Under the pieces are notes generated by a model. It made no database searches. It worked only from the letters and a program-made list of their open reading frames with translations, and had not been told where the DNA came from. From assembly GCF_026626585.1 (NCBI RefSeq), contig NZ_JAPNKD010000018.1, positions 1 to 11,717 of the forward strand: a stretch of 11,717 nucleotides of DNA. Direction: 5' to 3'. The position numbers and the translations under genes are program-made. Positions 514-11,561 of the stretch are shown one piece after another; the stretch's first letter is position 1; every line of letters begins with the position of its first letter. Source of the DNA: Nannocystis sp. ILAH1 (GTDB lineage Bacteria; Myxococcota_A; Polyangia; Nannocystales; Nannocystaceae).

Positions 514-577
514 CATGGGGGCATGGTCTCGAGGACATGAATAAAAGAGCATGTCCTCGGGGACATGTGAAGTGTGG
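514..577. repeat. CATG-phased 14-bp tandem array, copy A. CATG at 514, 522, 536, 550, 564; four units are exactly 14 bp.
   Basis: Read directly. Units are CATGGTCTCGAGGA / CATGAATAAAAGAG / CATGTCCTCGGGGA / CATGTGAAGTGTGG. The 10-bp spacers are variants of the palindrome TCCTCGAGGA. The array lies between the reductase stop (719) and the substrate-binding gene start (448). Confidence 0.7.
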
Positions 578-718
578 CGTCCGGCGGGCAGTGCGAGGCA
601 GAAGCTCGCGGGCTCGCGCGGCGGAGCTCCGCGAAGACGGTCTCTCGCGGCGTGGTGCGCTTCCCCGCAGGTGAGTGCGACCCGACCGGAGCGCGGCACG
701 TGGGCTCCGCCCGCCGGT

Positions 719-1768
719 TCAGGCGACGGGGATCGGCGGCGGGACGATGCTGTCGGGCTGGCCGCCGGCGATCCGCGGGCGGCTGCTCTCGACCTGCTGG
801 TGCGGGGTGCCGAGGGCGATCGCGCTGGCGGCGTCGAGGCGGGCGAGCTGGGCCGGCGCGAGCTCGAGGGTGAGCGCGGCGAGGGCGGCGTCGAGATGTG
901 GGCGGGTGCGCGGGCCGAGGATGGGGATCCGCGCGGTCGTGGAGCGATCGGCGTGGGCCAGCGACCAGGCGAGGGCGACCTGGGTCGGGGCGACGCCGGC
1001 CTCGGCGGCGACTGCGACCACGGCGTCGAGGATGCTGGTCTCGCGCGCGGTCTTCTCGGTGTGGACGAGCATGCCGAGGCCGGTGAGGCGGCCCTCGTCG
1101 CTGGTGCGGTACTTGCCGGTGAGGAAGCCGCCGCCGAGCGGCGACCACAGGGCCGCGCCGAGCCCCAGCGCCTCGGCCATCGGCAGCAGCTCGCGCTCCC
1201 CGGTGCGCTCGACCAGGCTGTGCTCGATCTGCACGCCCGCGAGCGGGGTCCACCCGCGCAGCTCGGCGATCGCGTCGCCTCGCGCGACCCGCCAGGCGGG
1301 GAAGTTCGAAAGGCCGCCGTAGAGGATCTTGCCGGCCCGCGCGAGGTCGTCGAGGCCGCGCACGATCTCATCGATCGGGGTCAGGCCGTCGGGGAAGTGG
1401 ACCCAATACAGCTCGATGCGGTCGGTCTTGAGCCGGCGCAGGCTGGCCTCGAGCGCGGCGATCATGGTCTTGCGGCTGTTGCCGGTGGCGTGCAGGCCGC
1501 CCCCGACGCCGAGGGTGTACTTGCTGGCGACGACGAAGCGGTCGCGCTCGGCCGCGAGGAACTCGCCGAGCAGTTGCTCCGACTGGCCGACCTGGTAGGT
1601 GTCGGCGGTGTCGATGAAGTTGCCGCCCGCCTCGGCGTAGGCGTCGAAGATCCGCCGCGCCTCGGCGGGCTCGCTGCCGTGGCCCCAACCAGTGCCGAAG
1701 TTGCCGGTGCCGAGGGCGAGCTCGGAGACGCGTAAGCCTGTGCGACGACCGAATGTCCTGTACCGCAT
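719..1768 (-). CDS. Aldo/keto reductase (AKR superfamily, NADPH-dependent oxidoreductase)
   Basis: 349-aa ORF. The N-terminus MRYRTFGRRTGLRVSELALGTGNFG is the classic AKR start. Catalytic tetrad candidates are D/Y in FIDTADTYQ, K in VVASKY and H in WVHFPD. Third codon positions are GC-rich. AGGAG sits about 6 nt upstream of the ATG, read as reverse complement at 1774-1778. The overlapping ORFs 70..1371(-), 551..1735(+) and 675..1322(+) are low-complexity alternate frames. Confidence 0.85.
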   Translation of the reverse strand: MRYRTFGRRTGLRVSELALGTGNFGTGWGHGSEPAEARRIFDAYAEAGGNFIDTADTYQVGQSEQLLGEFLAAERDRFVVASKYTLGVGGGLHATGNSRKTMIAALEASLRRLKTDRIELYWVHFPDGLTPIDEIVRGLDDLARAGKILYGGLSNFPAWRVARGDAIAELRGWTPLAGVQIEHSLVERTGERELLPMAEALGLGAALWSPLGGGFLTGKYRTSDEGRLTGLGMLVHTEKTARETSILDAVVAVAAEAGVAPTQVALAWSLAHADRSTTARIPILGPRTRPHLDAALAALTLELAPAQLARLDAASAIALGTPHQQVESSRPRIAGGQPDSIVPPPIPVA

Positions 1769-1775
1769 CGTGTGC

Positions 1776-1830
1776 TCCTGAGGTGATTTTTAGATTATGG
1801 ACGTCATATGGAATCGGCAAGGGGATGGCG
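1776..1830. promoter_or_regulatory. AT-rich divergent promoter region between the reductase (-) and the MFS gene (+). It contains a direct repeat TATGGA(1796-1801)/TATGGA(1807-1812) and the GACGTC/CATATG palindromes.
   Basis: A local drop in GC (tgatttttagattatggacgtcatatggaatcgg) in a ~70% GC background, lying between divergently oriented genes. No -10/-35 consensus is asserted. Confidence 0.35.
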
Positions 1831-1895
1831 CGTGAGTTCGGTTGAATCGGGTCGGGCGGATCCGCGCGGCGAGGGCTTGCGATCCGGAAATTATT

Positions 1896-1912
1896 CGTTC
1901 AATGATTGAACG
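1896..1912. promoter_or_regulatory. Perfect 17-bp palindrome CGTTCAAT-G-ATTGAACG. Candidate operator for the HxlR-type regulator, or another dimeric wHTH repressor, abutting the MFS start codon.
   Basis: Read directly: 8-bp inverted arms with a 1-bp centre. It is AT-rich and lies immediately 5' of the ATG at 1914. HxlR/MarR-type regulators bind palindromes of this size near the genes they control. Confidence 0.5.
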
Positions 1913-1913
1913 C

Positions 1914-3278
1914 ATGGAGATGCGTCTGTCCCCGTTGGTCGTGGCCAGCCTGGCCGTGTTCGCGGTGTTCCTCGACACGACGGTGCTGTTCGTGGCGTTC
2001 CCGTCGATCGCGGCGACGTTCCCGGCGGTGCCGACGGCCGAGCTGTCGTGGGTGCTGAACGCGTACACGATCGTGTTCGCGGCCGCGCTGGTGCCGTTCG
2101 GGCGGCTCGCCGATCGCTGGGGGCATCGGGCGATGTTCCTGGCCGGGTCGATCGGATTCACCCTGGCGTCGCTGCTGTGCGCGGCGGCGCCGACTCCGGG
2201 GCTGCTGGTGGCCGCGCGCGTGCTGCAGGCGGCCGGCGGCGCGGCGCTGGTGCCTTCGTCGCTGGCGCTGGTGATGCGGGCGACGCCGCGCGAGAAGCTG
2301 CCGGTGGCGCTGGCGGTGTGGGGCGCGACGGGGGCGGTGGCCGGGGCGGTCGGGCCGACGCTCGGCGCGGCGCTGATCGAGGCGTGCGGCTGGCGCTGGG
2401 TGTTCGCCATCAACCTGCCGGTCGGGCTGGTGACTGTGCTGCTCGGGCGCCGGCGACTGGCCGAGTCACGCGACCCGGACAGCGTGCTGCCGGCGCCGCT
2501 CGGGGTGGTGCTGCTGGTGCTCGCGGCGGTGTTGATCACTCTGGCGCTGGTGCTCGGCGAGGCGTGGGGCTGGACGTCGCAACGGACCGCGGCGACTCTG
2601 GTGGCCGGCCTGGCGACCCTGGCGGTGTTCGTGCTCCATCAGGCGCGCACGCGGGCGCCGACGATCGATCTGTCGCTGTTCGCGGCGAGCAACTTCCGCT
2701 GGGCCAACGCGGCGACGCTGACGTTCGGCGCGGCGTTCACTGCGATGTTCCTGGCCAGCGTCCTGTTCCTCACCGCGGTGTGGGACTGGTCGATCCTCGC
2801 GGCGGGCTTCGGCGTGGCGCCCGGGCCGCTGCTGGTGGCGGTGCTGTCACCGCGGTTCGGGCGGCTGGCGGCGCGGATCGGCCAGCGACCGCTGCTTATC
2901 GTCGGCGGGCTGTCGTTCGCGCTCGGAGGGCTGTGGCGCCTGCTGATGCTGTCGGCCGAGGTCGACTACGCGATCGACTATCTGCCGTCGATGCTGCTGA
3001 CGGGGACGGGGGTGGCGCTGTGCCTGCCGCAGCTGTCGAGCGTGGTCGGCCAGGCGCTGCCGGCCAATCGCCTCGGGGTCGGCGGGGCGGTCCACCAGGC
3101 GCTGCGCCAATTCGCGGGGACGCTCGGGGTGGCGCTGGCGATCGGGCTGACTGCCGGGGCGAGCGGGCCGGCCGACGCGCTGGCGCGGTTCGACCGGGTG
3201 TGGTGGGTGATGATCGCCGGCGGCTTGGCGACCGCGCTGTGCTCGCTGCCCCTTCGGACAGGTCCGGCCCGGGCGTGA
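1914..3278 (+). CDS. MFS transporter, DHA2 (EmrB/QacA-like 14-TMS drug:H+ antiporter) family
   Basis: TM1 is LSPLVVASLAVFAVFLDTTVLFVAFPSIAATF. Motif A is GRLADRWGHR. Antiporter motif C is GAVGPTLGAALIE. There are many hydrophobic spans. The track ORF begins at 1842, but codons 1881-1913 have A/T-rich third positions and overlap the palindrome, so I prefer the ATG at 1914 (MEMRLSP...). The start is uncertain; 1842, 1902 and 1920 are all possible. Confidence 0.8.
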   Translation: MEMRLSPLVVASLAVFAVFLDTTVLFVAFPSIAATFPAVPTAELSWVLNAYTIVFAAALVPFGRLADRWGHRAMFLAGSIGFTLASLLCAAAPTPGLLVAARVLQAAGGAALVPSSLALVMRATPREKLPVALAVWGATGAVAGAVGPTLGAALIEACGWRWVFAINLPVGLVTVLLGRRRLAESRDPDSVLPAPLGVVLLVLAAVLITLALVLGEAWGWTSQRTAATLVAGLATLAVFVLHQARTRAPTIDLSLFAASNFRWANAATLTFGAAFTAMFLASVLFLTAVWDWSILAAGFGVAPGPLLVAVLSPRFGRLAARIGQRPLLIVGGLSFALGGLWRLLMLSAEVDYAIDYLPSMLLTGTGVALCLPQLSSVVGQALPANRLGVGGAVHQALRQFAGTLGVALAIGLTAGASGPADALARFDRVWWVMIAGGLATALCSLPLRTGPARA

Positions 3279-3291
3279 TACAACGAGCCTC

Positions 3292-3741
3292 GTGCGGCGC
3301 AAGCGACTCGACCGGATGCAGTGCTCGATCGCGCGGGCGCTCGACGTCGTCGGCGACCCGTGGACGCTGCTGCTCGTGCGCGACGCGCTGCTCGGGGTGA
3401 CGCGCTTCGAGGCGTTTCAGGCGCGGCTGCAGATCCCGCGGGCCACGTTGACGGCCCGCCTGGAGCACCTGGTCGCCGCGGGAATCCTCGAGCGCCGGTC
3501 CTATCAGGATCATCCGCCGCGCGAGGAGTACGTGCCGACGGCGAAGGGCCGGGGGCTGCGGCCGGTGATCGTGACTCTGATGCAGTGGGGCGACGAGTTC
3601 GCCCGCGAAGACCCACCGCCGACGGTGCTCGAGGACGCCGCCACGGGGCTGCCGATCGAGCCGGTGCTGGTCGACCGCGTCAGCGGGGCGCCGCTCACCG
3701 CGCTGCGGGTGCGCGCGGTCGGACCGGTGGTGCCGCGGTGA
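3292..3741 (+). CDS. HxlR-family (MarR-like winged-helix) transcriptional regulator. Probably a thiol-based electrophile/redox sensor.
   Basis: MQCSIARALDVVGDPWTLLLVRDALLGVTRFEAFQARLQIPRATLTARLEHLVAAGILERR matches the HxlR signature C-x-I/V-A-R-x-L-D-x-x-G-D-x-W-T, with an N-proximal Cys as in YodB/HypR/QorR-type regulators. The start may be the ATG at 3292 or at 3319. There is a ~45-aa C-terminal extension. Confidence 0.8.
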   Translation: MRRKRLDRMQCSIARALDVVGDPWTLLLVRDALLGVTRFEAFQARLQIPRATLTARLEHLVAAGILERRSYQDHPPREEYVPTAKGRGLRPVIVTLMQWGDEFAREDPPPTVLEDAATGLPIEPVLVDRVSGAPLTALRVRAVGPVVPR

Positions 3742-3752
3742 GGTTGAGGGAG

Positions 3753-3822
3753 CATGCTCGTTCGAGCATGTCCTCGAGTGCATGAAGGATGGGGCATGTC
3801 GGAGGAGACATGCGCGAAAGGT
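3753..3822. repeat. CATG-phased 14-bp tandem array, copy B. Five units: CATG at 3753, 3767, 3781, 3795, 3809, each exactly 14 bp apart.
   Basis: Units are CATGCTCGTTCGAG / CATGTCCTCGAGTG / CATGAAGGATGGGG / CATGTCGGAGGAGA / CATGCGCGAAAGGT. The array lies between convergent genes (HxlR stop at 3741, permease stop at 3822-3824). The last unit ends at the permease stop codon. Confidence 0.75.
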
Positions 3823-4610
3823 CAGGAGACTGCGAGCTCGCGGCCGCGCCAGCGGCGGAGGGCGAGCTCGCCGAGCAGGGCGACGAGGCCGAACAGCAGC
3901 AGGCCGAGCAGGGTGGCGGTGAAGATCGCGGCGAACAGGTAGGCGGTCTGCAGGCGGCCGGAGGTCTGGAGGATGAGGGCGCCGAGGCCGAGCTCGTCGG
4001 CGCCGAAGCCGGCGAAGAACTCGCCGACGATGGCGCCGATGACCGCGAGGCCGCCGCTGATCTTGGCGCCGGCGACGAAGTAGGGCAGCGAGCCGGGCAG
4101 GCGCAGCTTGAGCAGCAGCTGCAGGCGCGAGGCGTCGCTCATGGCGAACAGCTCGAGCAGCTGCGGGTCGACGCGGACGAGGCCGGTGGTGCCGTTGGTG
4201 ATGATCGGGAAGACGCTGAGGATCGCGGCGGTGAGGACGACGCTCTGCAGGCCGGTGCCGAACCACACGACGATCAGCGGGGCGACGGCGACGATCGGGA
4301 CGGTCTGCAGGAAGATCGCGTACGGGTAGAGGCTGCGCGCCGCCGTCTGCGACTGCGAGAACAGGACTGCTACCAGGCCGCCGACGACGAGGCTGGCCCC
4401 GAGGCCGCCGAGCGCGCCGAGGGCGGTCAGCAGCGCGGCCTGGGCGAGCTCGCCGACGTGGGCTGCGGCCTCGCGTGCGACCTCGGCCGGGGTCGGCACG
4501 AGGTAGGCCGGCAGCGCCAGGGCGCTGCAGGCGAGCTGCCACAGGCCGAGGAGGGCGAGGAAGACGAGGAGCGGCGGGAGCGCGGCTCGAGCGGCCGATG
4601 CGAGGGACAT
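3822..4610 (-). CDS. ABC transporter permease, nitrate/sulfonate/bicarbonate (SsuC/TauC-like) family
   Basis: 262-aa polytopic hydrophobic protein (…LLTALGALGGLGASLVVGGLVAVLF…IFLQTVPIVAVAPLIVVWFG…) with a BPD-transporter-like loop around GLVRVDPQLLELFAMSDASRLQLLLKLRLPGSLPYFVAGAKIS. It sits adjacent to an ABC ATPase on the same strand. Confidence 0.8.
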   Translation of the reverse strand: MSLASAARAALPPLLVFLALLGLWQLACSALALPAYLVPTPAEVAREAAAHVGELAQAALLTALGALGGLGASLVVGGLVAVLFSQSQTAARSLYPYAIFLQTVPIVAVAPLIVVWFGTGLQSVVLTAAILSVFPIITNGTTGLVRVDPQLLELFAMSDASRLQLLLKLRLPGSLPYFVAGAKISGGLAVIGAIVGEFFAGFGADELGLGALILQTSGRLQTAYLFAAIFTATLLGLLLFGLVALLGELALRRWRGRELAVS

Positions 4611-4779
4611 GCGAGGAGGCAGAGAGGAGAGGAGGAGGCGAGGTGCCGGCGCCAGGCGAGGGAGCGGGGAGATGTGGGGAGGAGGAAGGCCGGCTGCGGC
4701 GGCGGGGCGGGGATCGGCCGGGAGAGCTGTCCCGAGGGACTTGTGTGGAGGGACAGGTGCGAAGGGACAGGCGGAGAGG
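4611..4779 (-). other. 169-nt intra-operon spacer. It is ~80% purine on the + strand, so the transcribed minus-strand RNA is a polypyrimidine tract. It contains short direct repeats and there is no Shine-Dalgarno before the permease ATG.
   Basis: On the + strand: gaggaggcagagaggagaggaggaggcgagg … gagggacaggtgcgaagggacaggcggagagg, with AGGGACAGG(T/C)G repeated. The inverted repeat GTCCC-GA-GGGAC lies at 4729-4740. The GGAGG motifs are on the non-coding strand relative to the flanking genes. Confidence 0.5.
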
Positions 4780-5622
4780 TCAGGTCCGAACAGGCAGGTC
4801 CGAAGGGTCAGGCGGGGCGGCGGCGCGCAAGTGGGCGCGGACGTCGGCGGCGATCGCCGCGAACTCGGGGCTGCCGATCAGGGCGGCGCGGCGCGGGCGC
4901 GGCAGGGCGATCGGGATGTCGGCGACCACGCGGCCGGGGCGGCCGGAGAGGACGATGACGCGGTCGCCGAGCAGGACCGCTTCGGCGACGCTGTGGGTGA
5001 CGGCCAGGGCGGTGAAGCGGTCGCGCTCCCACAGGCGCAGCAGCTCGTCGTTGAGCCGCTCGCGCGTGAGCTCGTCGAGGGCGCCGAACGGCTCGTCGAG
5101 CAGGAGCAGCTCGGGCCGGGTGACGAGGGCGCGGGCCAGGGAGGCCCGCATCTTCATGCCGCCCGAGAGCGCAGTCGGCGGGGCGGCGGCGAACTCCGAC
5201 AGGCCGACGAGCGCGAGCGCGGCGTCGGCGGCGGTGGTCTGCTCGGCTTTCGGGGCGCGCGCGAGCTCGAGCGGGAGGCGGACGTTGGCGTGCAGGCTGC
5301 GCCACGGGAGCAGGGTCGGATCCTGAAACACGAAGGCGACCGCGCGGCGCGCCCGGGCCCGCTCGGGGGCCTCGCCCGCGACTGTGATGGTGCCCGCGCT
5401 GGCGGGCGCGAGGCCGGCTGCCACGCGCAGGAAGGTCGACTTGCCGCAGCCCGAGGGGCCGATGAGGGCGAGCAGCTCGCCGCGGCGGACGACGAGGTCG
5501 AGGCCGCTCAGGGCCTGCACGCCGCCCGCGAACTGCACGCCGAGGCCGCGGGCCTCGATGTGCGGGGCTGGGGCCGGCTCGGTCACGCGGCGGACGCTAA
5601 CACAGCAGCGGACGCGACGCAC
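4780..5622 (-). CDS. ABC transporter ATP-binding protein (SsuB/TauB-like)
   Basis: Walker A is GPSGCGKST. The ABC signature is LSGGMKMRASLARAL. Walker B is LLLLDEPFGALD. The H-loop is AVTHSV. The start may be the ATG at 5622 or, more likely, the GTG at ~5585 (VTEPAPAPHIEARGLGV…). Confidence 0.8.
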   Translation of the reverse strand: MRRVRCCVSVRRVTEPAPAPHIEARGLGVQFAGGVQALSGLDLVVRRGELLALIGPSGCGKSTFLRVAAGLAPASAGTITVAGEAPERARARRAVAFVFQDPTLLPWRSLHANVRLPLELARAPKAEQTTAADAALALVGLSEFAAAPPTALSGGMKMRASLARALVTRPELLLLDEPFGALDELTRERLNDELLRLWERDRFTALAVTHSVAEAVLLGDRVIVLSGRPGRVVADIPIALPRPRRAALIGSPEFAAIAADVRAHLRAAAPPDPSDLPVRT

Positions 5623-5706
5623 AGGCAGCCGGACGGCTTCGTGGTGACGGCGATCGGCGACACGGCGCGACGGACGAGCGAGGCGCTCGGCGTCCGGGTG
5701 GCGGCG

Positions 5707-6492
5707 TCAGGCCTTGCGGGGGCGCGAGCGGCGGGCGCGGGCGGGCTTGGCCGGGGGCGCTGGGGGCTCGGGCTCGGGCTCGTCTGCCTCTTCGGGCATG
5801 TCCTCGAGGTCCGGTGCTTCCGCACCTGTCGTTTCGGACATGTCCTCGGAGCCCTCCTCGGCCTCGGGCTCGGGCCCGGCCTCGGGCGGGTCGGACGGGG
5901 CCGCCTCGAGGCCGCTGTTGCGGAGGGTGCGGGGCGGCAGCAGCTCGGGCTCGCTGACGACCTTCTTGGCCAGGAAGATGGCGGCGTCGATCTGGGAGAA
6001 GCTGCGGGCGCGGTAGAACTGGAGCGCGCGCTTGTTGTTGGCGGCGACCTCGAGGACGAGGTGCGTGCAGCCGCGCACGCGGGCGAGGTGCTCGAGCTGC
6101 TCGATGACGAAGCTGCCGATCCCGCGGCCCTGGAAGTCGGGGTGGATGGCGATCTCCTCGACGAACAGCGGGCGCATGTCGCGGCTCTCGAAGTAGCGCT
6201 CGTTGATCCAATTGTCGGAGCCGATGACCTCGTAGGCGCACTCGGCGTAGCCGACGATCACCGGGGCGTCGCCCTCGTGGATCTCGAACAGCAGCTGCTC
6301 GATGCCCTCCTCCTCGTAGATCTCGAGGAAGCGGGTCTTGGTGCGGGGGCGCTGGTACTCGACGGTCTCGCGGTTGACCGAGCGGAACACGCGCTTGAGG
6401 AACTCCCACACCTTGTTGAGGTCGCGGCGGTGGATCCGGCGGACACGGATGGTCGGCTCCGTGACGGCGGGCGCGGGCTTGCGGGAGGCCAC
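5707..6492 (-). CDS. GNAT-family N-acetyltransferase (~175-aa core) with an ~85-aa acidic/Pro-rich low-complexity C-terminal tail that ends in a basic KPARARRSRPRKA
   Basis: The acetyl-CoA binding motif is QGRGIGSFVIEQLEHLA, followed by the GNAT core LVLEVAANNKRALQFYRARSF. The start is GTG (rc of cac at 6490-6492). The tail is ...EAGPEPEAEEGSEDMSETTGAEAPDLEDMPEEADEPEPEPPAPPAKPARARRSRPRKA. The gene is co-oriented with and immediately upstream of the ABC ATPase. Confidence 0.75.
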   Translation of the reverse strand: MASRKPAPAVTEPTIRVRRIHRRDLNKVWEFLKRVFRSVNRETVEYQRPRTKTRFLEIYEEEGIEQLLFEIHEGDAPVIVGYAECAYEVIGSDNWINERYFESRDMRPLFVEEIAIHPDFQGRGIGSFVIEQLEHLARVRGCTHLVLEVAANNKRALQFYRARSFSQIDAAIFLAKKVVSEPELLPPRTLRNSGLEAAPSDPPEAGPEPEAEEGSEDMSETTGAEAPDLEDMPEEADEPEPEPPAPPAKPARARRSRPRKA

Positions 6493-6542
6493 GGCCGAAG
6501 TCTAGCACCGCCGAAGGGCCGCTCGTCCGCCTTGCGTGTCTG

Positions 6543-6552
6543 CGCACGTGCG
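6543..6552. promoter_or_regulatory. Perfect 10-bp palindrome CGCACGTGCG in the 75-bp divergent promoter region between the GNAT gene (-) and the beta-helix lipoprotein gene (+)
   Basis: Read directly. It is followed by GGCATGCTCGG, which is similar to the GAGCATGCTC motif of the CATG arrays. Confidence 0.3.
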
Positions 6553-6567
6553 TGGCATGCTCGGCCG

Positions 6568-8388
6568 ATGCGTCCCCGCGCCGCTGCGTCCGCTGCCGAG
6601 CCCGCGCGCCGGCGTGGCCGACGTCCCGGCGCGGGCCTGCGCCAGATCGGGCTCGGGTGCGTGGCCGTCGCGCTCGCTTGCGGACCGGACGAGCAGAAGT
6701 CGCAGAAGGTCGAGGCGAACCCGAACATGCCCGACCGGGTGCAGGCGCCTGCGCCCGCGCCGCGCCGGCCGGAGGTCAGCGACTGCCCCGAGGCTCTCCG
6801 CGAGCCGGAGCAGGTCGACCGCGTGATCGGCTCGGCCTGCAAGTCGGTGACGGTCCACCCGGGCTACCGGATCGAGAACGGGTCGCTGACGATCGAGGCA
6901 GGGGTGACCCTGCAATTCATGCCCGACGCCGAGCTGGCGGTCGGCTTCGAGCGCCCGGCGACGCTGCACGTGCGCGGCACGCCCGAGTCGCCGGTCCGCT
7001 TCACGGCCGCGGGCGATCAGGCCAAGCCGGGGGCGTGGAAGGGGATCGCGCTGTACGACCACGCCGACGGCTCGGAGATCGCCGGGCTCGTGCTCGAGTT
7101 CGCCGGTACGGACCTGCGCGGGGCGATCTACGTGCAGGCGACCGACGTGAAGATCGACGGCTCGACGGTGCGCGACAGCCAGAACGTGGCGGTCCACGTC
7201 ACGTCGAAGGGCCACGTCAGCAGCTTCAAGGGCAACCGGCTCGAGCGCGTGAGCTCGCCGGCGCTGCTGCTGCCGGCCCGCTCGGCCGGGTCGGTGACGC
7301 CCGACAACACGTTCCCGCCCGACTCGGTGATCCACGTGCTCGGCGGGATGATCCGCGAACGCGCCCGCTGGGACGTGCCGAAGGTGCCGTTCGTGATCGG
7401 CGGGGTGATCGAGATCGAGGGCCCCGACGACAAGCACGAGGCGATGCTCGAGCTGGCCCCGGGGACAGTCCTGAAGTTCGACGACGACGCGTACTTCACG
7501 GTCGGCTACGACCACCCGGCGGCGCTCATCGCCGAGGCGGCGGGCAAGGAGCCGATCGTGCTGACGTCGGCGACGCGCGAGACGTCGCACGCGTGGCGCG
7601 GGGTCAACCTCTACCGCTCGGCCACCGCGAGCTTCAGCAACGTGGTGTTCGAGTACGGCGGCCAGCGTTCCGACCGCGGGGTGGTCTACGCCAACAACGA
7701 GGCGCGCCTCAGCGCGAAGGGCTGCACGTTCCGCGACAACGGCGGCGGGGTGACGCTCCAGGGCGCGAACGTCCGCCTCGGCGAGTTCCGCGACAACACG
7801 TTCGAGCGCTCGCACCCGGCCTTCGACGTGAGTCCGCAGCTGTTCGGGATGATCCCGGCCGAGAACAAGCTCGACGCGGCGACGACGGTCCAGGTCGAGG
7901 GCGGCGAGGTCAGCAAGGACGCGGTGTGGCACGACTTCGGGGTGCCGATCGAGGTCAAGCGCCCGGTCTCGGTCGACAACCAGGCGACGCTGACGATCCG
8001 CGCCGGCGCCAAGCTGCGCGTCCACGACGGCTTCTCGCTCGGGGTCGGCGAGTTCGGCGGCGGCTCGCTGCGCGTCGAGGGCACGGCCGAGCGCCCGGTG
8101 CAGATCTTCGGGACCACCGACCGCCGCGGGACGTGGGACGCGATCCGCCTGTACGAGAAGGCCCGCGGCAACCTGTTCGAGCACGTGCAGCTGCGCAACG
8201 CCGGCGGCGAGGGGGCGATCAACGTCGCCATGGGCGTCGACGCTGTGGTCCGCGACGTGTCCTGCGTGCGCTGCTTCAGCCCGACGCTGACGTGGGCCTG
8301 CGGCTCGCGCGTGACGTCCGAGCGCGTCACGGGCGGAGCCGAGACGCCGGCGGCGACGCTGCCGCCGTTCGGCTGCGATCCGTCGTGA
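6568..8388 (+). CDS. Secreted putative lipoprotein of 606 aa, built from three tandem ~180-aa right-handed beta-helix-like modules, with a Cys-rich C-terminus
   Basis: The ATG at 6568 gives MRPRAAASAAEPARRRGRRPGAGLRQIGLGCVAVALACGPDEQKS, a basic n-region, an h-region and lipobox-like ALAC. There are three internally repeated A modules: LTIEAGVTLQFMPDAELAVGFERPATLHVRGTPESPVRFTAAGDQAKPGAWKGIALYDHADGSEIAGLVLEFAG / LELAPGTVLKFDDDAYFTVGYDHPAALIAEAAGKEPIVLTSATRETSHAWRGVNLYRSATASFSNVVFEYGG / LTIRAGAKLRVHDGFSLGVGEFGGGSLRVEGTAERPVQIFGTTDRRGTWDAIRLYEKARGNLFEHVQLRNAGG. Each is followed by a B module with Asn/Asp ladder-like tracts (GCTFRDNGGGVTLQGANVRLGEFRDNTFERS). The last 45 aa contain 5 Cys. The 5' 2 kb of track ORF 4609..8388 is an antisense artifact. 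The real gene is the 3' third, in the same frame. Confidence 0.7.
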   Translation: MRPRAAASAAEPARRRGRRPGAGLRQIGLGCVAVALACGPDEQKSQKVEANPNMPDRVQAPAPAPRRPEVSDCPEALREPEQVDRVIGSACKSVTVHPGYRIENGSLTIEAGVTLQFMPDAELAVGFERPATLHVRGTPESPVRFTAAGDQAKPGAWKGIALYDHADGSEIAGLVLEFAGTDLRGAIYVQATDVKIDGSTVRDSQNVAVHVTSKGHVSSFKGNRLERVSSPALLLPARSAGSVTPDNTFPPDSVIHVLGGMIRERARWDVPKVPFVIGGVIEIEGPDDKHEAMLELAPGTVLKFDDDAYFTVGYDHPAALIAEAAGKEPIVLTSATRETSHAWRGVNLYRSATASFSNVVFEYGGQRSDRGVVYANNEARLSAKGCTFRDNGGGVTLQGANVRLGEFRDNTFERSHPAFDVSPQLFGMIPAENKLDAATTVQVEGGEVSKDAVWHDFGVPIEVKRPVSVDNQATLTIRAGAKLRVHDGFSLGVGEFGGGSLRVEGTAERPVQIFGTTDRRGTWDAIRLYEKARGNLFEHVQLRNAGGEGAINVAMGVDAVVRDVSCVRCFSPTLTWACGSRVTSERVTGGAETPAATLPPFGCDPS

Positions 8389-8480: not shown

Positions 8481-8506
8481 ACAAAGGTACATATATGCAC
8501 CTTTGT
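8481..8506. other. 26-bp near-perfect AT-rich palindrome ACAAAGGT-a-CATATATG-c-ACCTTTGT, followed by TTTCC, inside a ~70-bp low-GC island (8440-8510). Possible bidirectional terminator hairpin or protein-binding site.
   Basis: Read directly. 24 of 26 positions are self-complementary. The island lies between convergent genes (lipoprotein stop at 8388, kinase stop at 8643). A UUUUU run at 8451-8455 precedes a small hairpin AGCC-GUAAA-GGCU at 8458-8470. Confidence 0.35.
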
Positions 8507-8573
8507 TTCCGGCCGCGAGCGTCGGTGCATGAGCAGGCGAGAGCGCGAGTGGGATGGATGATGAGCGCGCTGG

Positions 8574-8647
8574 CATGACGCATGGAGCATGTCGACGAGG
8601 ACATGCTCCGAAGAGCATGCTCCTATGGACATGTTCTTCGAGTCATG
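8574..8647. repeat. CATG-phased array, copy D. CATG at 8574, 8581, 8588, 8602, 8616, 8630, 8644, with spacing 7, 7, 14, 14, 14, 14.
   Basis: The sequence is GCATGACGCATGGAGCATGTCGACGAGGACATGCTCCGAAGAGCATGCTCCTATGGACATGTTCTTCGAGTCATGG. It contains GAGCATGTC-GACGAG-GACATGCTC, a 9-bp perfect inverted repeat around a 6-bp centre. The final CATG overlaps the kinase stop codon (TGA = rc of 8643-8645). In-phase ATGs also occur at 8561 and 8554. Confidence 0.75.
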
Positions 8648-11393
8648 GCCTCGAGGGCAGGTGCGTCCGCGGGCCGGCGCGGGTCAGCAGGCGCTCGCTG
8701 GCGGCCAGCGGGCGGGCGAAGCTGGCGCCGGCGCTGCGGTAGAAGGCGAGCGCGGCCCCGAGGTGCGGGCGAGCGGCGGCCACGGCGGGAGGCGTGGCGG
8801 TCAGCAGGGCCTCGGCGAGGGTGCGGTGGGCGCGAGCGAGGCGCGGGGCCCAGTGCGGGTCGTCGGCGGCGAGGACGGTGAGCTCGGCGACCGCGGCGGC
8901 CAGCGGGACGCGGGCCTCGAGCGGTCGGCCGCGGACGAGCAAGTTCTGGCCGAGGACCAGGCGCAGCTCGGCGATCTCCTCGCTCGACCAGGTGGCGTCC
9001 GGCATGCGCGCGAGGGTGGCCTGGAGGTGCTCGACGGCGGTGTTGTCGTCGACCAGACCGGCGAGGCCGCGGTAGCCGGCGAGCAGGGTCGCCTCGGGCC
9101 CGAACAGGCGCGTGCCGGACAGCTCCGACAGCTCGGCGGCGGCGCGGAAGACCGAGGCGGCGTCGTCGTCATAGCCGATCTCGGTGGCGGCGCGGCCGAG
9201 GTGGAAGAGGCACCGCGTGCGGCGCACGAGGTCGTCGGGCAAGAATCGCTCGAGCGCGACGCAGCCGGTCTGGAGGATCGACCAGGCCTCGCCCGGCTCG
9301 GCCAGCTGGGCGGCGGTGATCCGCGCCTCGATCGTGGCGGGGTGGACGACGCCGAGCTCGGCGTCGAAGATCTCGAGGGCGCGCGCGAGGAGGTCGTCGC
9401 GCGCGGCGCCCGGCTCGGTGACGGAGGCGAGGTTGAGCAGGGTGTAGCCGACGTCGCGGTGGCCGGCCGACAGGGCGCCCTGGCGCACGCTCAGGGCCTC
9501 GGTGAAGTAGCGCCGCGCCTCGGCCGAGTTGCGCTGGGCGAGGTTGGCGACGCCGAGGTTGTGCAGGACGAGGCCGCGCAGGGCCTCGGGGGCGGCGCCG
9601 CGAGAGGCGAGGGCGAGGGCGAGGGGCTCGTCGGCGAGGGCGCGAGCGACCATCTCGGGCCGGCGGCTGGCGGCGACGATCCGCGAGGCCACGGCCTCGG
9701 CCGCGATCGCGTCGCCGCGCGACTCGATGCCGCTGCGCATGGCCCGGGTCAACCACTCGAGCTCCTGGCCGGTCTCCTCGGAGGTGTTGAGCGAGAGCCG
9801 CCCGCGCAGCAGCGCGACCTCGGCCCGCAGCGGGGCGTAGCCGATCTGCTCGGCGGCGGCCTCGATGTCGACGGCCTGATCGACCGCGTCGTGGATCCGC
9901 CCGAGCTTGGCCAGCGCCTCGGCCCGCGCCATGTGATTGCGCAGGTCGGCGACCCGCTCGCCGAGCTCGGGGTCGTCGGGCGCGGGCGGCTCGGCCTTGA
10001 GGAAGGCGAGCTCGTGACAGGCGGAGGGCGGCACGAGATCGCTGGCGGCGCCGAGCGCCCGCGGGGCCATGTCCATGTCGGCGATCGAGAGGGCCTTGAC
10101 GGTCTCGTCGAAGGCGTCGCGCCGGCGATCGAGGCAGCGGCGCTGGCGATCGAGCAAGGCCTCGGTGTAGCGGCCCTGGTGCTCGGCGAGGCAAGTGTCG
10201 CGGTGGTTCTCGGCCCACGAGGCGGCGAAGCGATCGAGCTTGTCGGCGACCCTGGGCCACAGCACCGCGGCGTAGTTGGGCGCCGCGTCGCGCAAGGCGG
10301 TGGCGACGGCGTTGCGCTGGGCCGGGCCCCACACGCGGGCGATGTCGGCGTCGGCGTCGGCACACGGGGACTCGGCGGCGGCCTCGGGCACGAAGGCGAG
10401 GCCGGCGGCGCCGGCGGTGAGGGCGAGCGCCAGCGCGGCGCCGACGACCCGCCAGGTCCGCCCGCGCGACGGGACGAGCGCGCCGAGCAGCGCCTCCATC
10501 GACGGGTAGCGGTCGCGCGGCTCGGTCTTGAGGCCGCGCATGAGGGCAGCGATCAGCCACGCGGGCACGCCGTGGTTGCGCGGCGGAGGCCGCAGGTGGC
10601 CGTTGGTGATCGCGTGCGAGAGCGCGAGGATGTCGTTGCCGGCGAACGGCGGCAGGCCGAACAAAGCCTCGTAGAGGGCGACGCAGAAGCTGAACTGGTC
10701 GGAGGCCGGCTCGGCCGCGCCGCCGCGCCAGCGCTCGGGCGCGAGATAGGCGGGCGTGCCGAGGATGTCCTCGCCGTCGTCGCCGACGCGGATCCGCATG
10801 CTCTGACTGGCGCCCGAGGACAGGTCGAGCAGGCCCGGGCGATCGGGGGTAGCGCGCACGAGCCCGAAGTCGAGGACGCAGGCGCGGCCGGTGGCGTCGA
10901 TCATGACGTTGCCGGGCTTGAAGTCGCGGTGCAGGAGGCCCACCTCGTGGGCGGCGGCGAGGCCTCGCGCGGCCTGAGTGAATACGTCGTGGATCTCGCG
11001 CCAGGTCCGCGGCCCGGCGGCCAGCCAGGCCGGCAGCGCGGCGCCGCGGATCAGCTCCATGGCGACGTAGACCTGGCCCTTGATGACCCCGGCCTCGAGC
11101 ACGGTGATGACATTGGGGTGGCTGACGCCGGCCATCGCCTGAGCCTCGCGCAGCAGCCGGATCTGGCCCTTCGACCCGGTGTCGGGCAGGACCTTGATCG
11201 CGACCTTGCGGTCGAGGAGCTCGTCGTAGGCGGCGTAGACGACCGCCGTGCCGCCGCCGAGGCGCTCGAGGATGGTGAACCGACCGAGCCGCGGAGGCAG
11301 GGTCGCAGGGACCGAGATCGCGACACCAGGCAGCGACTGCGTGATGTCCACCGAGATCCCCGACGCGTCCGTATCGGGAATGATGACGCTCAT
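8643..11393 (-). CDS. Membrane-anchored Ser/Thr protein kinase: an N-terminal Hanks kinase domain, a single TM helix, and a ~570-aa C-terminal TPR-like/helical-repeat sensor region
   Basis: The kinase domain has the beta3 Lys in VAIKVL, catalytic HRDFKPGNVMI, DFG (VLDFGLV), GTPAYLAPE, and a glycine loop LGGGTAVVY. The TM segment is RVVGAALALALTAGAAGLAFV. After the TM helix there are 4 Cys and TPR-like stretches (LHNLGVANLAQRNSAEARRYFTEALSV). The track start is a TTG at 11435. I prefer the ATG at 11393 (MSVIIPDTD…). The 766-aa ORF 9169..11469(-) is an Arg-rich alternate-frame artifact. Confidence 0.8.
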   Translation of the reverse strand: MSVIIPDTDASGISVDITQSLPGVAISVPATLPPRLGRFTILERLGGGTAVVYAAYDELLDRKVAIKVLPDTGSKGQIRLLREAQAMAGVSHPNVITVLEAGVIKGQVYVAMELIRGAALPAWLAAGPRTWREIHDVFTQAARGLAAAHEVGLLHRDFKPGNVMIDATGRACVLDFGLVRATPDRPGLLDLSSGASQSMRIRVGDDGEDILGTPAYLAPERWRGGAAEPASDQFSFCVALYEALFGLPPFAGNDILALSHAITNGHLRPPPRNHGVPAWLIAALMRGLKTEPRDRYPSMEALLGALVPSRGRTWRVVGAALALALTAGAAGLAFVPEAAAESPCADADADIARVWGPAQRNAVATALRDAAPNYAAVLWPRVADKLDRFAASWAENHRDTCLAEHQGRYTEALLDRQRRCLDRRRDAFDETVKALSIADMDMAPRALGAASDLVPPSACHELAFLKAEPPAPDDPELGERVADLRNHMARAEALAKLGRIHDAVDQAVDIEAAAEQIGYAPLRAEVALLRGRLSLNTSEETGQELEWLTRAMRSGIESRGDAIAAEAVASRIVAASRRPEMVARALADEPLALALASRGAAPEALRGLVLHNLGVANLAQRNSAEARRYFTEALSVRQGALSAGHRDVGYTLLNLASVTEPGAARDDLLARALEIFDAELGVVHPATIEARITAAQLAEPGEAWSILQTGCVALERFLPDDLVRRTRCLFHLGRAATEIGYDDDAASVFRAAAELSELSGTRLFGPEATLLAGYRGLAGLVDDNTAVEHLQATLARMPDATWSSEEIAELRLVLGQNLLVRGRPLEARVPLAAAVAELTVLAADDPHWAPRLARAHRTLAEALLTATPPAVAAARPHLGAALAFYRSAGASFARPLAASERLLTRAGPRTHLPSRP

Positions 11394-11561
11394 GGGACTC
11401 GACCAGTCTTGCACCGACCCGCACACACGCCCCAACCGCGGCGTCGCGAGGCCGATGCGGCGCGTTCAAGCGGCGCCGCCGGCCCGTGGCGCGTGTCCGC
11501 CCGACCGCGACGCGCAGCGGGCGCTAAGCATCGCCTGTCCCAAAGTTCTAAATTGATGTGG

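Follow-up and report, generated by a model that had tools for sequence, protein, structure and literature searches.

Strictly phased arrays of a 14-bp palindromic repeat at gene 3′ ends in the genus Nannocystis

Introduction

REP/BIME elements have roles that involve gyrase, IHF and the stabilisation of mRNA. The dRS3/NIME repeats of Neisseria (ATTCCC-N8-GGGAAT) occur in hundreds of copies in intergenic mosaics, and the met-boxes of MetJ are 8-bp palindromes arranged as 2–5 repeats. REP groups contain hundreds of identical 16-mers (PMC3337134), and the PadR dyad reads ATGT-N8-ACAT (PMC10295242).

Here, we analysed a stretch of 11,717 nt (hereafter, the window) with a GC content of 73% from the myxobacterial genus Nannocystis. 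It contains arrays that belong to a Nannocystis-wide family of short phased palindromic repeats. This family is apparently undescribed; no description was found in the literature searched for these Nannocystis repeats.

By function and location, REP/BIME elements and REPINs appear to be the closest known elements. The arrays share with REP/BIME elements and the REPIN-RAYT systems of Pseudomonas (PMC3337134) the character of short, extragenic, imperfect palindromes that are present in many copies, often clustered and capable of forming hairpins. They also share positions in transcribed 3′ regions and between convergent genes, rarity at promoters and persistence at orthologous sites. However, the Nannocystis unit is only 14 bp long, has 10 semi-conserved positions and abuts its neighbours in exact phase. 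Moreover, the arrays have neither a master sequence nor a high-copy 16-mer, and their CATG is the junction between units, not a 5′ GTAG-type tail. Bidirectional intrinsic terminators, as generally known, likewise place a symmetric hairpin-forming sequence directly after two convergent stop codons, the hairpin being bordered by a purine-rich tract on one side and a pyrimidine-rich tract on the other. The arrays differ from them in the lack of a real U-tract and in the iteration of conserved units at a fixed period. The dRS3/NIME repeats are comparable in their inverted conserved half-sites, variable centre, intergenic arrays and restriction to one genus, whereas the Neisseria units border longer blocks of repeats, do not abut one another in phase and are unrelated in sequence. 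A phage origin of the Nannocystis arrays was rejected, and a link to phage integration, as for dRS3, was not seen (0 viral matches). The sites of MetJ and PadR resemble the arrays in having a palindromic unit at an exact period with conserved half-sites and a free centre, and those array units in which CATG is flanked by T and A match the PadR dyad. Those sites are promoter operators of particular regulons, in contrast to arrays that occupy hundreds or more loci at the 3′ ends of genes, and the PadR dyad fits only about half of the units, a resemblance of sequence only.

Repeat Arrays in the Window

The gene map of the window begins with genes for an NMT1-type binding protein (<1–448, − strand, ATG at 448) and an aldo/keto reductase (719–1768, −), followed by an MFS transporter (1842/1914–3278, +), an HxlR regulator (3292–3741, +), an ABC permease (3822–4610, −), a Pfam-confirmed ABC ATPase (4780–5622, −), a GNAT acetyltransferase (5707–6492, −), a beta-helix protein (about 6601–8388, +) and a Ser/Thr kinase with TPR (8643–11435, −). 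The reductase was 99% identical to its counterpart in Nannocystis sp. RBIL2, and the permease was 98% identical to that of N. pusilla. The window lacks a Ser/Thr kinase gene that N. punicea and N. radixulma carry between their genes for GNAT and the ABC ATPase; this difference spans 5622–6601 in the window versus 3903–5935 and 3615–6037 in the loci of these two species (L001 and L002, respectively). No intervening kinase gene was found between the GNAT and ATPase genes of the more distant loci L116 and L117 either. A perfect palindrome, CGTTCAAT-G-ATTGAACG (1896–1912), overlaps the MFS transporter start (ATG at 1902 or 1914) within the AT-rich divergent region between the reductase gene and the MFS-HxlR operon, and is plausibly an operator of the HxlR regulator.

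Three arrays with a CATG core were found. Array A (514–577; CATG in phase at 522, 536, 550 and 564, and an additional one at 514) consists of TGYCC-N4-GGRCA units and is flanked by the reductase and binding-protein genes; it is atypical in that the reductase stop codon is 151 nt away. Array B (3749–3815), with five copies of CATG (3753, 3767, 3781, 3795 and 3809), occupies the 80-bp gap between the convergent HxlR and permease genes. Array D (8574–8650), with six in-phase copies (8574, 8588, 8602, 8616, 8630 and 8644) and an additional one at 8581, adjoins the kinase-TPR gene. The kinase stop codon (TCA, 8643–8645 on the + strand) overlaps the CATG at 8644, and this overlap recurs in N. punicea (933–935) and N. 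radixulma (861–863). Runs of CATG spaced by 14 bp extended over 522–567, 3753–3812 and 8574–8647. The pattern CATG-N10-CATG-N10-CATG-N10-CATG occurred six times in the window and not once in any of 200 dinucleotide-preserving shuffles. A coding role was rejected, given that the arrays are intergenic; the exceptions are the first unit of array D, which a stop codon overlaps, and the first units of array C.

Array C (4735–4812, − strand) is a related variant with the same 14-bp period (TRF period 14) and a non-palindromic core, CCTGTCC on the − strand and GGACAGG on the + strand. It straddles the ABC ATPase stop, upstream of the permease gene. Repeats of this type were observed at the ATPase–permease junction in four genomes (window, 4611–4812; N. 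punicea, 6743–6949; N. radixulma, 6821–7061; L114, a more distant relative, 7000–7106). The non-palindromic repeat (CCTGTCC on the sense strand) is followed there by a C/T-rich tract of ~120 nt, an arrangement conserved in kind. In the sister lineage L116 (5985–6058), five copies of CCCTGTCTCAYCGG mixed with a CATGTCC unit directly follow the stop codon of the beta-helix gene.

The first-pass annotation had singled out arrays A and D as sharing a module with identical spacing. Reading of the sequence bore out the gapless alignment of 530–568 with 8596–8634, in which CGAGGACATG (530–539 and 8596–8605), GAGCATG (547–553 and 8613–8619) and GGACATGT (561–568 and 8627–8634) stand in the same register, with 28 of 39 positions identical. 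The two N7 spacers, described as completely different, are almost so, with matches at 3 of 14 positions. A special kinship between the two arrays did not hold. In-register 39-nt segments of unrelated arrays shared 22.4 ± 2.6 positions, and the A–D value lies only at about the 97th percentile of this in-register similarity. Array A was closer to arrays of other species (31/39 and 30/39), and array B also has the CATG pattern of A and D. The similarity of A and D reflects the consensus shared by the family.

Repeat Unit and Distribution

The spacing of CATG was analysed across at least seven Nannocystis species, in a total of 318 kb of DNA. There were 220 CATG pairs at a distance of 14 bp, 134 at 28 bp, 88 at 42 bp and 34 at 56 bp, versus four and five pairs at 13 and 15 bp, respectively. 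The fixed spacing proposed from arrays A and D is thus found in other genomic copies. This DNA contained 56 arrays with at least three phased CATG, and 10 arrays were present in 54 kb not chosen for array content. In a scan for four phased CATG in which each bacterial and archaeal species was represented by one genome, at least 34 stretches among the 111 matches listed were from Nannocystis (N. bainbridge, N. exedens, N. pusilla, N. punicea, N. radixulma and a MAG). The 77 non-Nannocystis stretches among the matches listed were all near-perfect tandem repeats with a period of 7 or 14. CATG arrays were few or absent in relatives with 83%, 71% and 60% permease identity, and the family thus fades in sister lineages. 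The 14-bp phase is unusually strict and highly non-random, and the arrays are a genus-restricted type of extragenic palindromic repeat.

Each array comprises 3–7 head-to-tail copies of the 14-bp dyad TGYCC-N4-GGRCA. Because the units abut, every junction reads CATG, and the ten bases between successive CATGs are Y-C-C, four nearly free bases and G-G-R. The Y/C/C and G/G/R positions flanking CATG were 50%–75% conserved. Array ends retain GGRCA without the next TG (the commonest tetramers at the +14 position were CAGG, CATC and CAGC), and the unit was therefore defined as TGYCC-N4-GGRCA. The N4 centre was not fully random. CGAA/TTCG occurred 13 times versus 2.5 expected, and GAAG/CTTC, GAAC/GTTC and the palindromes TCGA, CGCG and GATC were also enriched, whereas GNRA tetraloops in N4 were not (26 versus 21.6 expected).

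Junctions favoured GGGCA-TGTCC and GGACA-TGCCC over perfect palindromes, as reflected in the junction hexamers GCATGT (66) and ACATGC (46) versus ACATGT (42) and GCATGC (24). A CATG-centred palindrome serving as a dimer site (GGRCATGYCC) was rejected, given that there was no complementarity across CATG and perfect palindromes were under-represented. The identity of this junction consensus with the p53 half-site RRRCWWGYYY was regarded as a coincidence. Avoidance of CATG through restriction was also rejected, with 926 sites outside the arrays versus 714 expected. CTAG was extremely rare in the 318 kb (42 sites, whereas the remaining palindromic tetramers that were counted had 536 to 3431).

Location and Persistence of the Arrays

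The 44 non-redundant arrays comprised 22 in convergent, 16 in tandem and 2 in divergent contexts, with 4 unclassified. Background intergenic regions of the annotated loci were 26% convergent and 21% divergent; relative to this background, the arrays showed a convergent excess (P = 7e-5) and a divergent deficit (P = 0.0055). At least one adjacent gene 3′ end was present for 38 of the 40 classified arrays. The stop codon nearest to the first perfect CATG was usually at −10 to +40 nt, and the arrays thus lie downstream of stop codons, as intrinsic terminators do. Of the 9 convergent gaps in the annotated loci that span 100 bp or more, 7 contained an array, although these loci are syntenic and hence non-independent. 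The strands of flanking genes were called by a home-made GC3 test, which is approximate and mislabelled some sides; the two visible errors were convergent sites labelled as tandem, so that the convergent estimate is conservative. The arrays mark gene ends rather than switching the neighbouring transporter gene, and gene 3′ ends are either where they act or the places to which they are restricted.

Loci syntenic with the window were compared in N. punicea, N. radixulma and the more distant relative L114, whose reductase is 81% identical; locus L115 was not syntenic. All three carried arrays at matching intergenic positions, including orthologues of array A, with different copy numbers and spacers. 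At the site of array D, CATG was in phase over 5–6 units in three species with single lapses (AATG and CCTA). Spacers at orthologous sites were about 40%–50% identical. Between N. pusilla and N. exedens, in which the coding flank is about 95% identical, only the two stop-proximal units could be aligned, one core had degenerated to CATT, and there was a duplicated segment of about 40 bp. Together with the persistence at orthologous sites, this gain, loss and decay of units indicates that arrays stay in place while individual units turn over, and that the constraint on each unit is modest. In the N. pusilla locus L007 (3690–3830), the ~40-bp tandem duplication relative to N. exedens includes the array start (TTCACGACGCGCGGCG.CGCATGTCTTGGA), which shows one route of array growth.

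RNA Folding and Possible Transcription Termination

The 44 arrays folded far better as single strands than their shuffles (mean MFE z −4.4). In the window, the RNA MFE was −23.9 kcal/mol for array A on the sense (−) strand (z −3.7), −34.1 kcal/mol for array B (z −4.5) and −39.6 kcal/mol for array D (z −4.2). Most of this fold strength is attributable to the dyad consensus, an imperfect palindrome capable of forming hairpins; compared with chimeras of pooled units, the arrays folded slightly better (mean z −0.6, p = 0.002). As the unit is a dyad, transcripts of both strands can fold into stacked hairpins with pyrimidine-rich tails. The arrays might therefore act through RNA only, as bidirectional intrinsic terminators or 3′-end stabilisers built from serial weak CAUGYCC-N4-GGRCAUG hairpins with U/C-rich tails. 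Between convergent genes, such hairpins would operate on both strands, either ending transcription or shielding the 3′ end of the mRNA. This explanation is a serious rival to the protein-docking reading that we favour below. We consider it possible but on balance rather unlikely, and still more probable than the selfish-repeat explanation.

The position of the arrays directly after stop codons, their enrichment between convergent genes and their strong folding are consistent with an RNA-only function. The enriched UUCG/CGAA centres point in the same direction, and so do the first spacer positions, which are T/C-rich (T at s1, s2 and s4 was 49%, 31% and 37%, respectively, versus about 13% expected in a genome with 73% GC). 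Modest extra complementarity was also observed: complementarity across the spacer was barely above that of shuffles (z 1.2–2.9), the excess over the consensus within a spacer had z values of 1.2–3.2, that between spacers i−1 and i+1 reached z 2–3.3 at several positions, and inverted similarity within the spacer and between spacers i−1 and i+1 had z values of 3.0–3.5. In array A, a unit hairpin (CATGTCC-CCGA-GGACATG, 567–550, − strand) is followed by the T-rich spacer CTCTTTTATT (549–540); this was the one terminator-like site found versus 0.1 expected. Judging from its sequence, 540–567 is terminator-like for the reductase transcript, and an AT-rich spacer after a unit hairpin is also present in the array A orthologues of N. 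punicea and N. radixulma. The suggestion that array A is a 3′ element of the reductase gene fits both this site on the sense strand and the location of the family.

Other features are difficult to reconcile with hairpins as the sole function. The three variable stem positions were pairable in 60%–70% at most even with G-U included, and complementarity across CATG was zero or negative (position 1, z −2.5). No T-tract follows the arrays: T accounted for 7%–20% beyond the last unit, the tails were mixed C/T, and, the one unit of array A aside, U-tract terminators are accordingly not a general feature. In tandem contexts, the sense strand had no folding preference over the antisense strand. Hairpins need neither an invariant CATG nor an exact 14-nt period, yet hairpin-incapable variants have the same period and location. 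A structured RNA family would be marked by compensatory changes and a curated model, whereas covariation in the arrays was weak and an Rfam scan of the window (E ≤ 1) gave no match at any array, its sole two matches lying at 7151–7197 and 3168–3198. The conserved blocks, free centre and little covariation are the pattern that the first-pass annotation had named as indicating protein contacts.

The beta-helix gene has an AT-rich hairpin downstream of it, ACAAAGGT...ACCTTTGT, with TT after the hairpin (8481–8508; RNA MFE −19.9 kcal/mol, z −2.9). A version with compensatory changes is present in N. punicea, and the hairpin is absent from N. radixulma. This element is probably a conventional intrinsic terminator next to array D. 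The presence of a canonical AT-rich hairpin-plus-T terminator beside the array suggests that the array is something additional.

Repeat Origin and Proposed Operator Function

The arrays could also be selfish or neutral, i.e., a REPIN-like family that a RAYT-type transposase has spread, or products of slippage or segmental duplication; they would then be tolerated at gene 3′ ends and have no host function. The harm caused by insertions into promoters would explain such toleration, and the arrays are extragenic, palindromic, abundant and depleted in divergent regions, as REPs are. The restriction to one genus with fading in sister lineages, and the local segmental duplication and unit loss between N. 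pusilla and N. exedens, also agree with this origin. However, neighbouring units were no more similar than units of different arrays (direct similarity z −0.9 to 0.1). Neighbouring spacers were as similar as random pairs, and recent tandem duplication was rejected on this basis. The consensus is thus kept by something besides recent duplication, and the arrays differ from ordinary mini- or microsatellites, in which units are near-identical through recent slippage. REPIN-like master copies were rejected as well, given that the arrays contain no high-copy long k-mers; no 16-mer of the arrays was repeated, whereas a master sequence of this length or longer would occur in tens to hundreds of copies. 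The 12 commonest 16-mers in 96 kb of N. pusilla DNA all lacked CATG and had a common GC-rich core, CGACGACGGCAA. Neither a RAYT gene nor a recurrent small gene was found beside the arrays among 282 ORFs at 34 loci, although a single-copy gene would probably have been missed. With neither a master sequence nor a RAYT found, the arrays were not classed as members of the REP/REPIN group. The lack of a recurrent transposase-like gene near the arrays in the sample is a weak argument against selfish spread, as RAYTs are single-copy. The persistence of cores and phase across species while spacers randomise also counts against it. A selfish or neutral origin therefore appears improbable, and the earlier view that the arrays are not neutral repeats is supported.

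A role of array A as an operator or upstream activating site dedicated to the substrate-binding lipoprotein gene, which the first-pass annotation had also raised, is very unlikely: the array does lie 66–129 nt upstream of the start (ATG at 448, − strand; the claimed range was roughly right), has a dyad unit with fixed spacing and includes units matching the PadR dyad (PMC10295242), but like arrays occur at hundreds or more sites genome-wide, mostly promoterless (22 of 40 convergent and 2 of 40 divergent), and the orthologous A arrays vary in copy number and in distance to the start, unlike promoter operators, which hold a conserved position relative to the start. The segment conserved beside this start in four species is not array A but 449–495, i.e., ~45 nt directly upstream of the start codon that read GCCGCTGGTGCGTCC.TGGCGCTC.G.TGTAC.CTT on the − strand, the remaining intergenic region being unconserved. 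From its sequence, this segment, to which Rfam gave no match, is a candidate promoter or leader of the binding-protein gene.

Putative Docking Sites at Gene 3′ Boundaries

Our tentatively preferred reading is that the arrays are phased docking sites for a putative DNA-binding protein at gene 3′ boundaries and are functionally similar to REP/BIME elements. A sequence-specific protein would bind duplex DNA with one dimer per unit, placing neighbours 14 bp apart. The docking arrays would sit where transcription units end, chiefly in the gaps that separate convergent genes. Once bound, they would halt transcription arriving from both sides, or insulate against it, through a roadblock or the handling of supercoils, a job comparable to that of REP/BIME elements in enterobacteria. 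The hairpins in the transcripts could be a by-product or an added contribution, possibly to termination or 3′-end protection.

Several observations favour docking. The period is exact, whereas hairpins alone would tolerate variable loops, and the half-sites are conserved with little covariation. The preferences in the N4 centre include symmetric sequences (TCGA, CGCG and GATC), and fold energy shows no strand bias. Non-palindromic arrays of the TGTCC type with a 14-bp period are unable to form hairpins and occur in either orientation relative to transcription. In addition, the arrays persist in phase at orthologous sites in four genomes despite spacer change, their ends respect the boundaries of the unit, and neighbouring units bear no trace of recent duplication. 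Their location at gene 3′ ends argues for docking specifically at transcription-unit boundaries. The existence of the family, its unit and strict phase, its location, its capacity to form hairpins and its persistence across species are shown by these results, whereas we infer protein binding and the effect on transcription. Signals of selection on hairpins, namely the chimera test, inverted similarity and CGAA/TTCG centres, count against docking, and so does the lack of a recurrent gene near the arrays among the 282 ORFs. Moreover, we know of no established bacterial precedent for phased DNA-binding arrays at gene 3′ ends.

A bolder form of the docking reading, which we regard as unlikely though worth stating, is that Nannocystis uses phased arrays to mark the 3′ ends of many, indeed a large share, of its transcription units. 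A dedicated protein would coat the arrays as a helix-winding series with one dimer per 14 bp, forming a bidirectional, sequence-programmed roadblock or topological barrier between convergent genes.

Conclusions

To our knowledge, little is known about the ends of transcription units in very GC-rich myxobacteria. The arrays are strictly phased, easily recognised elements at gene ends in every sampled Nannocystis genome, and they provide a direct handle on this question. In annotation, arrays of this type should not be taken for operators of individual genes. They could also be used as insulator parts for engineering these natural-product producers. If a dedicated protein does coat the arrays, they would represent a bacterial counterpart of the DNA-bound terminators and insulators of eukaryotes and mitochondria.
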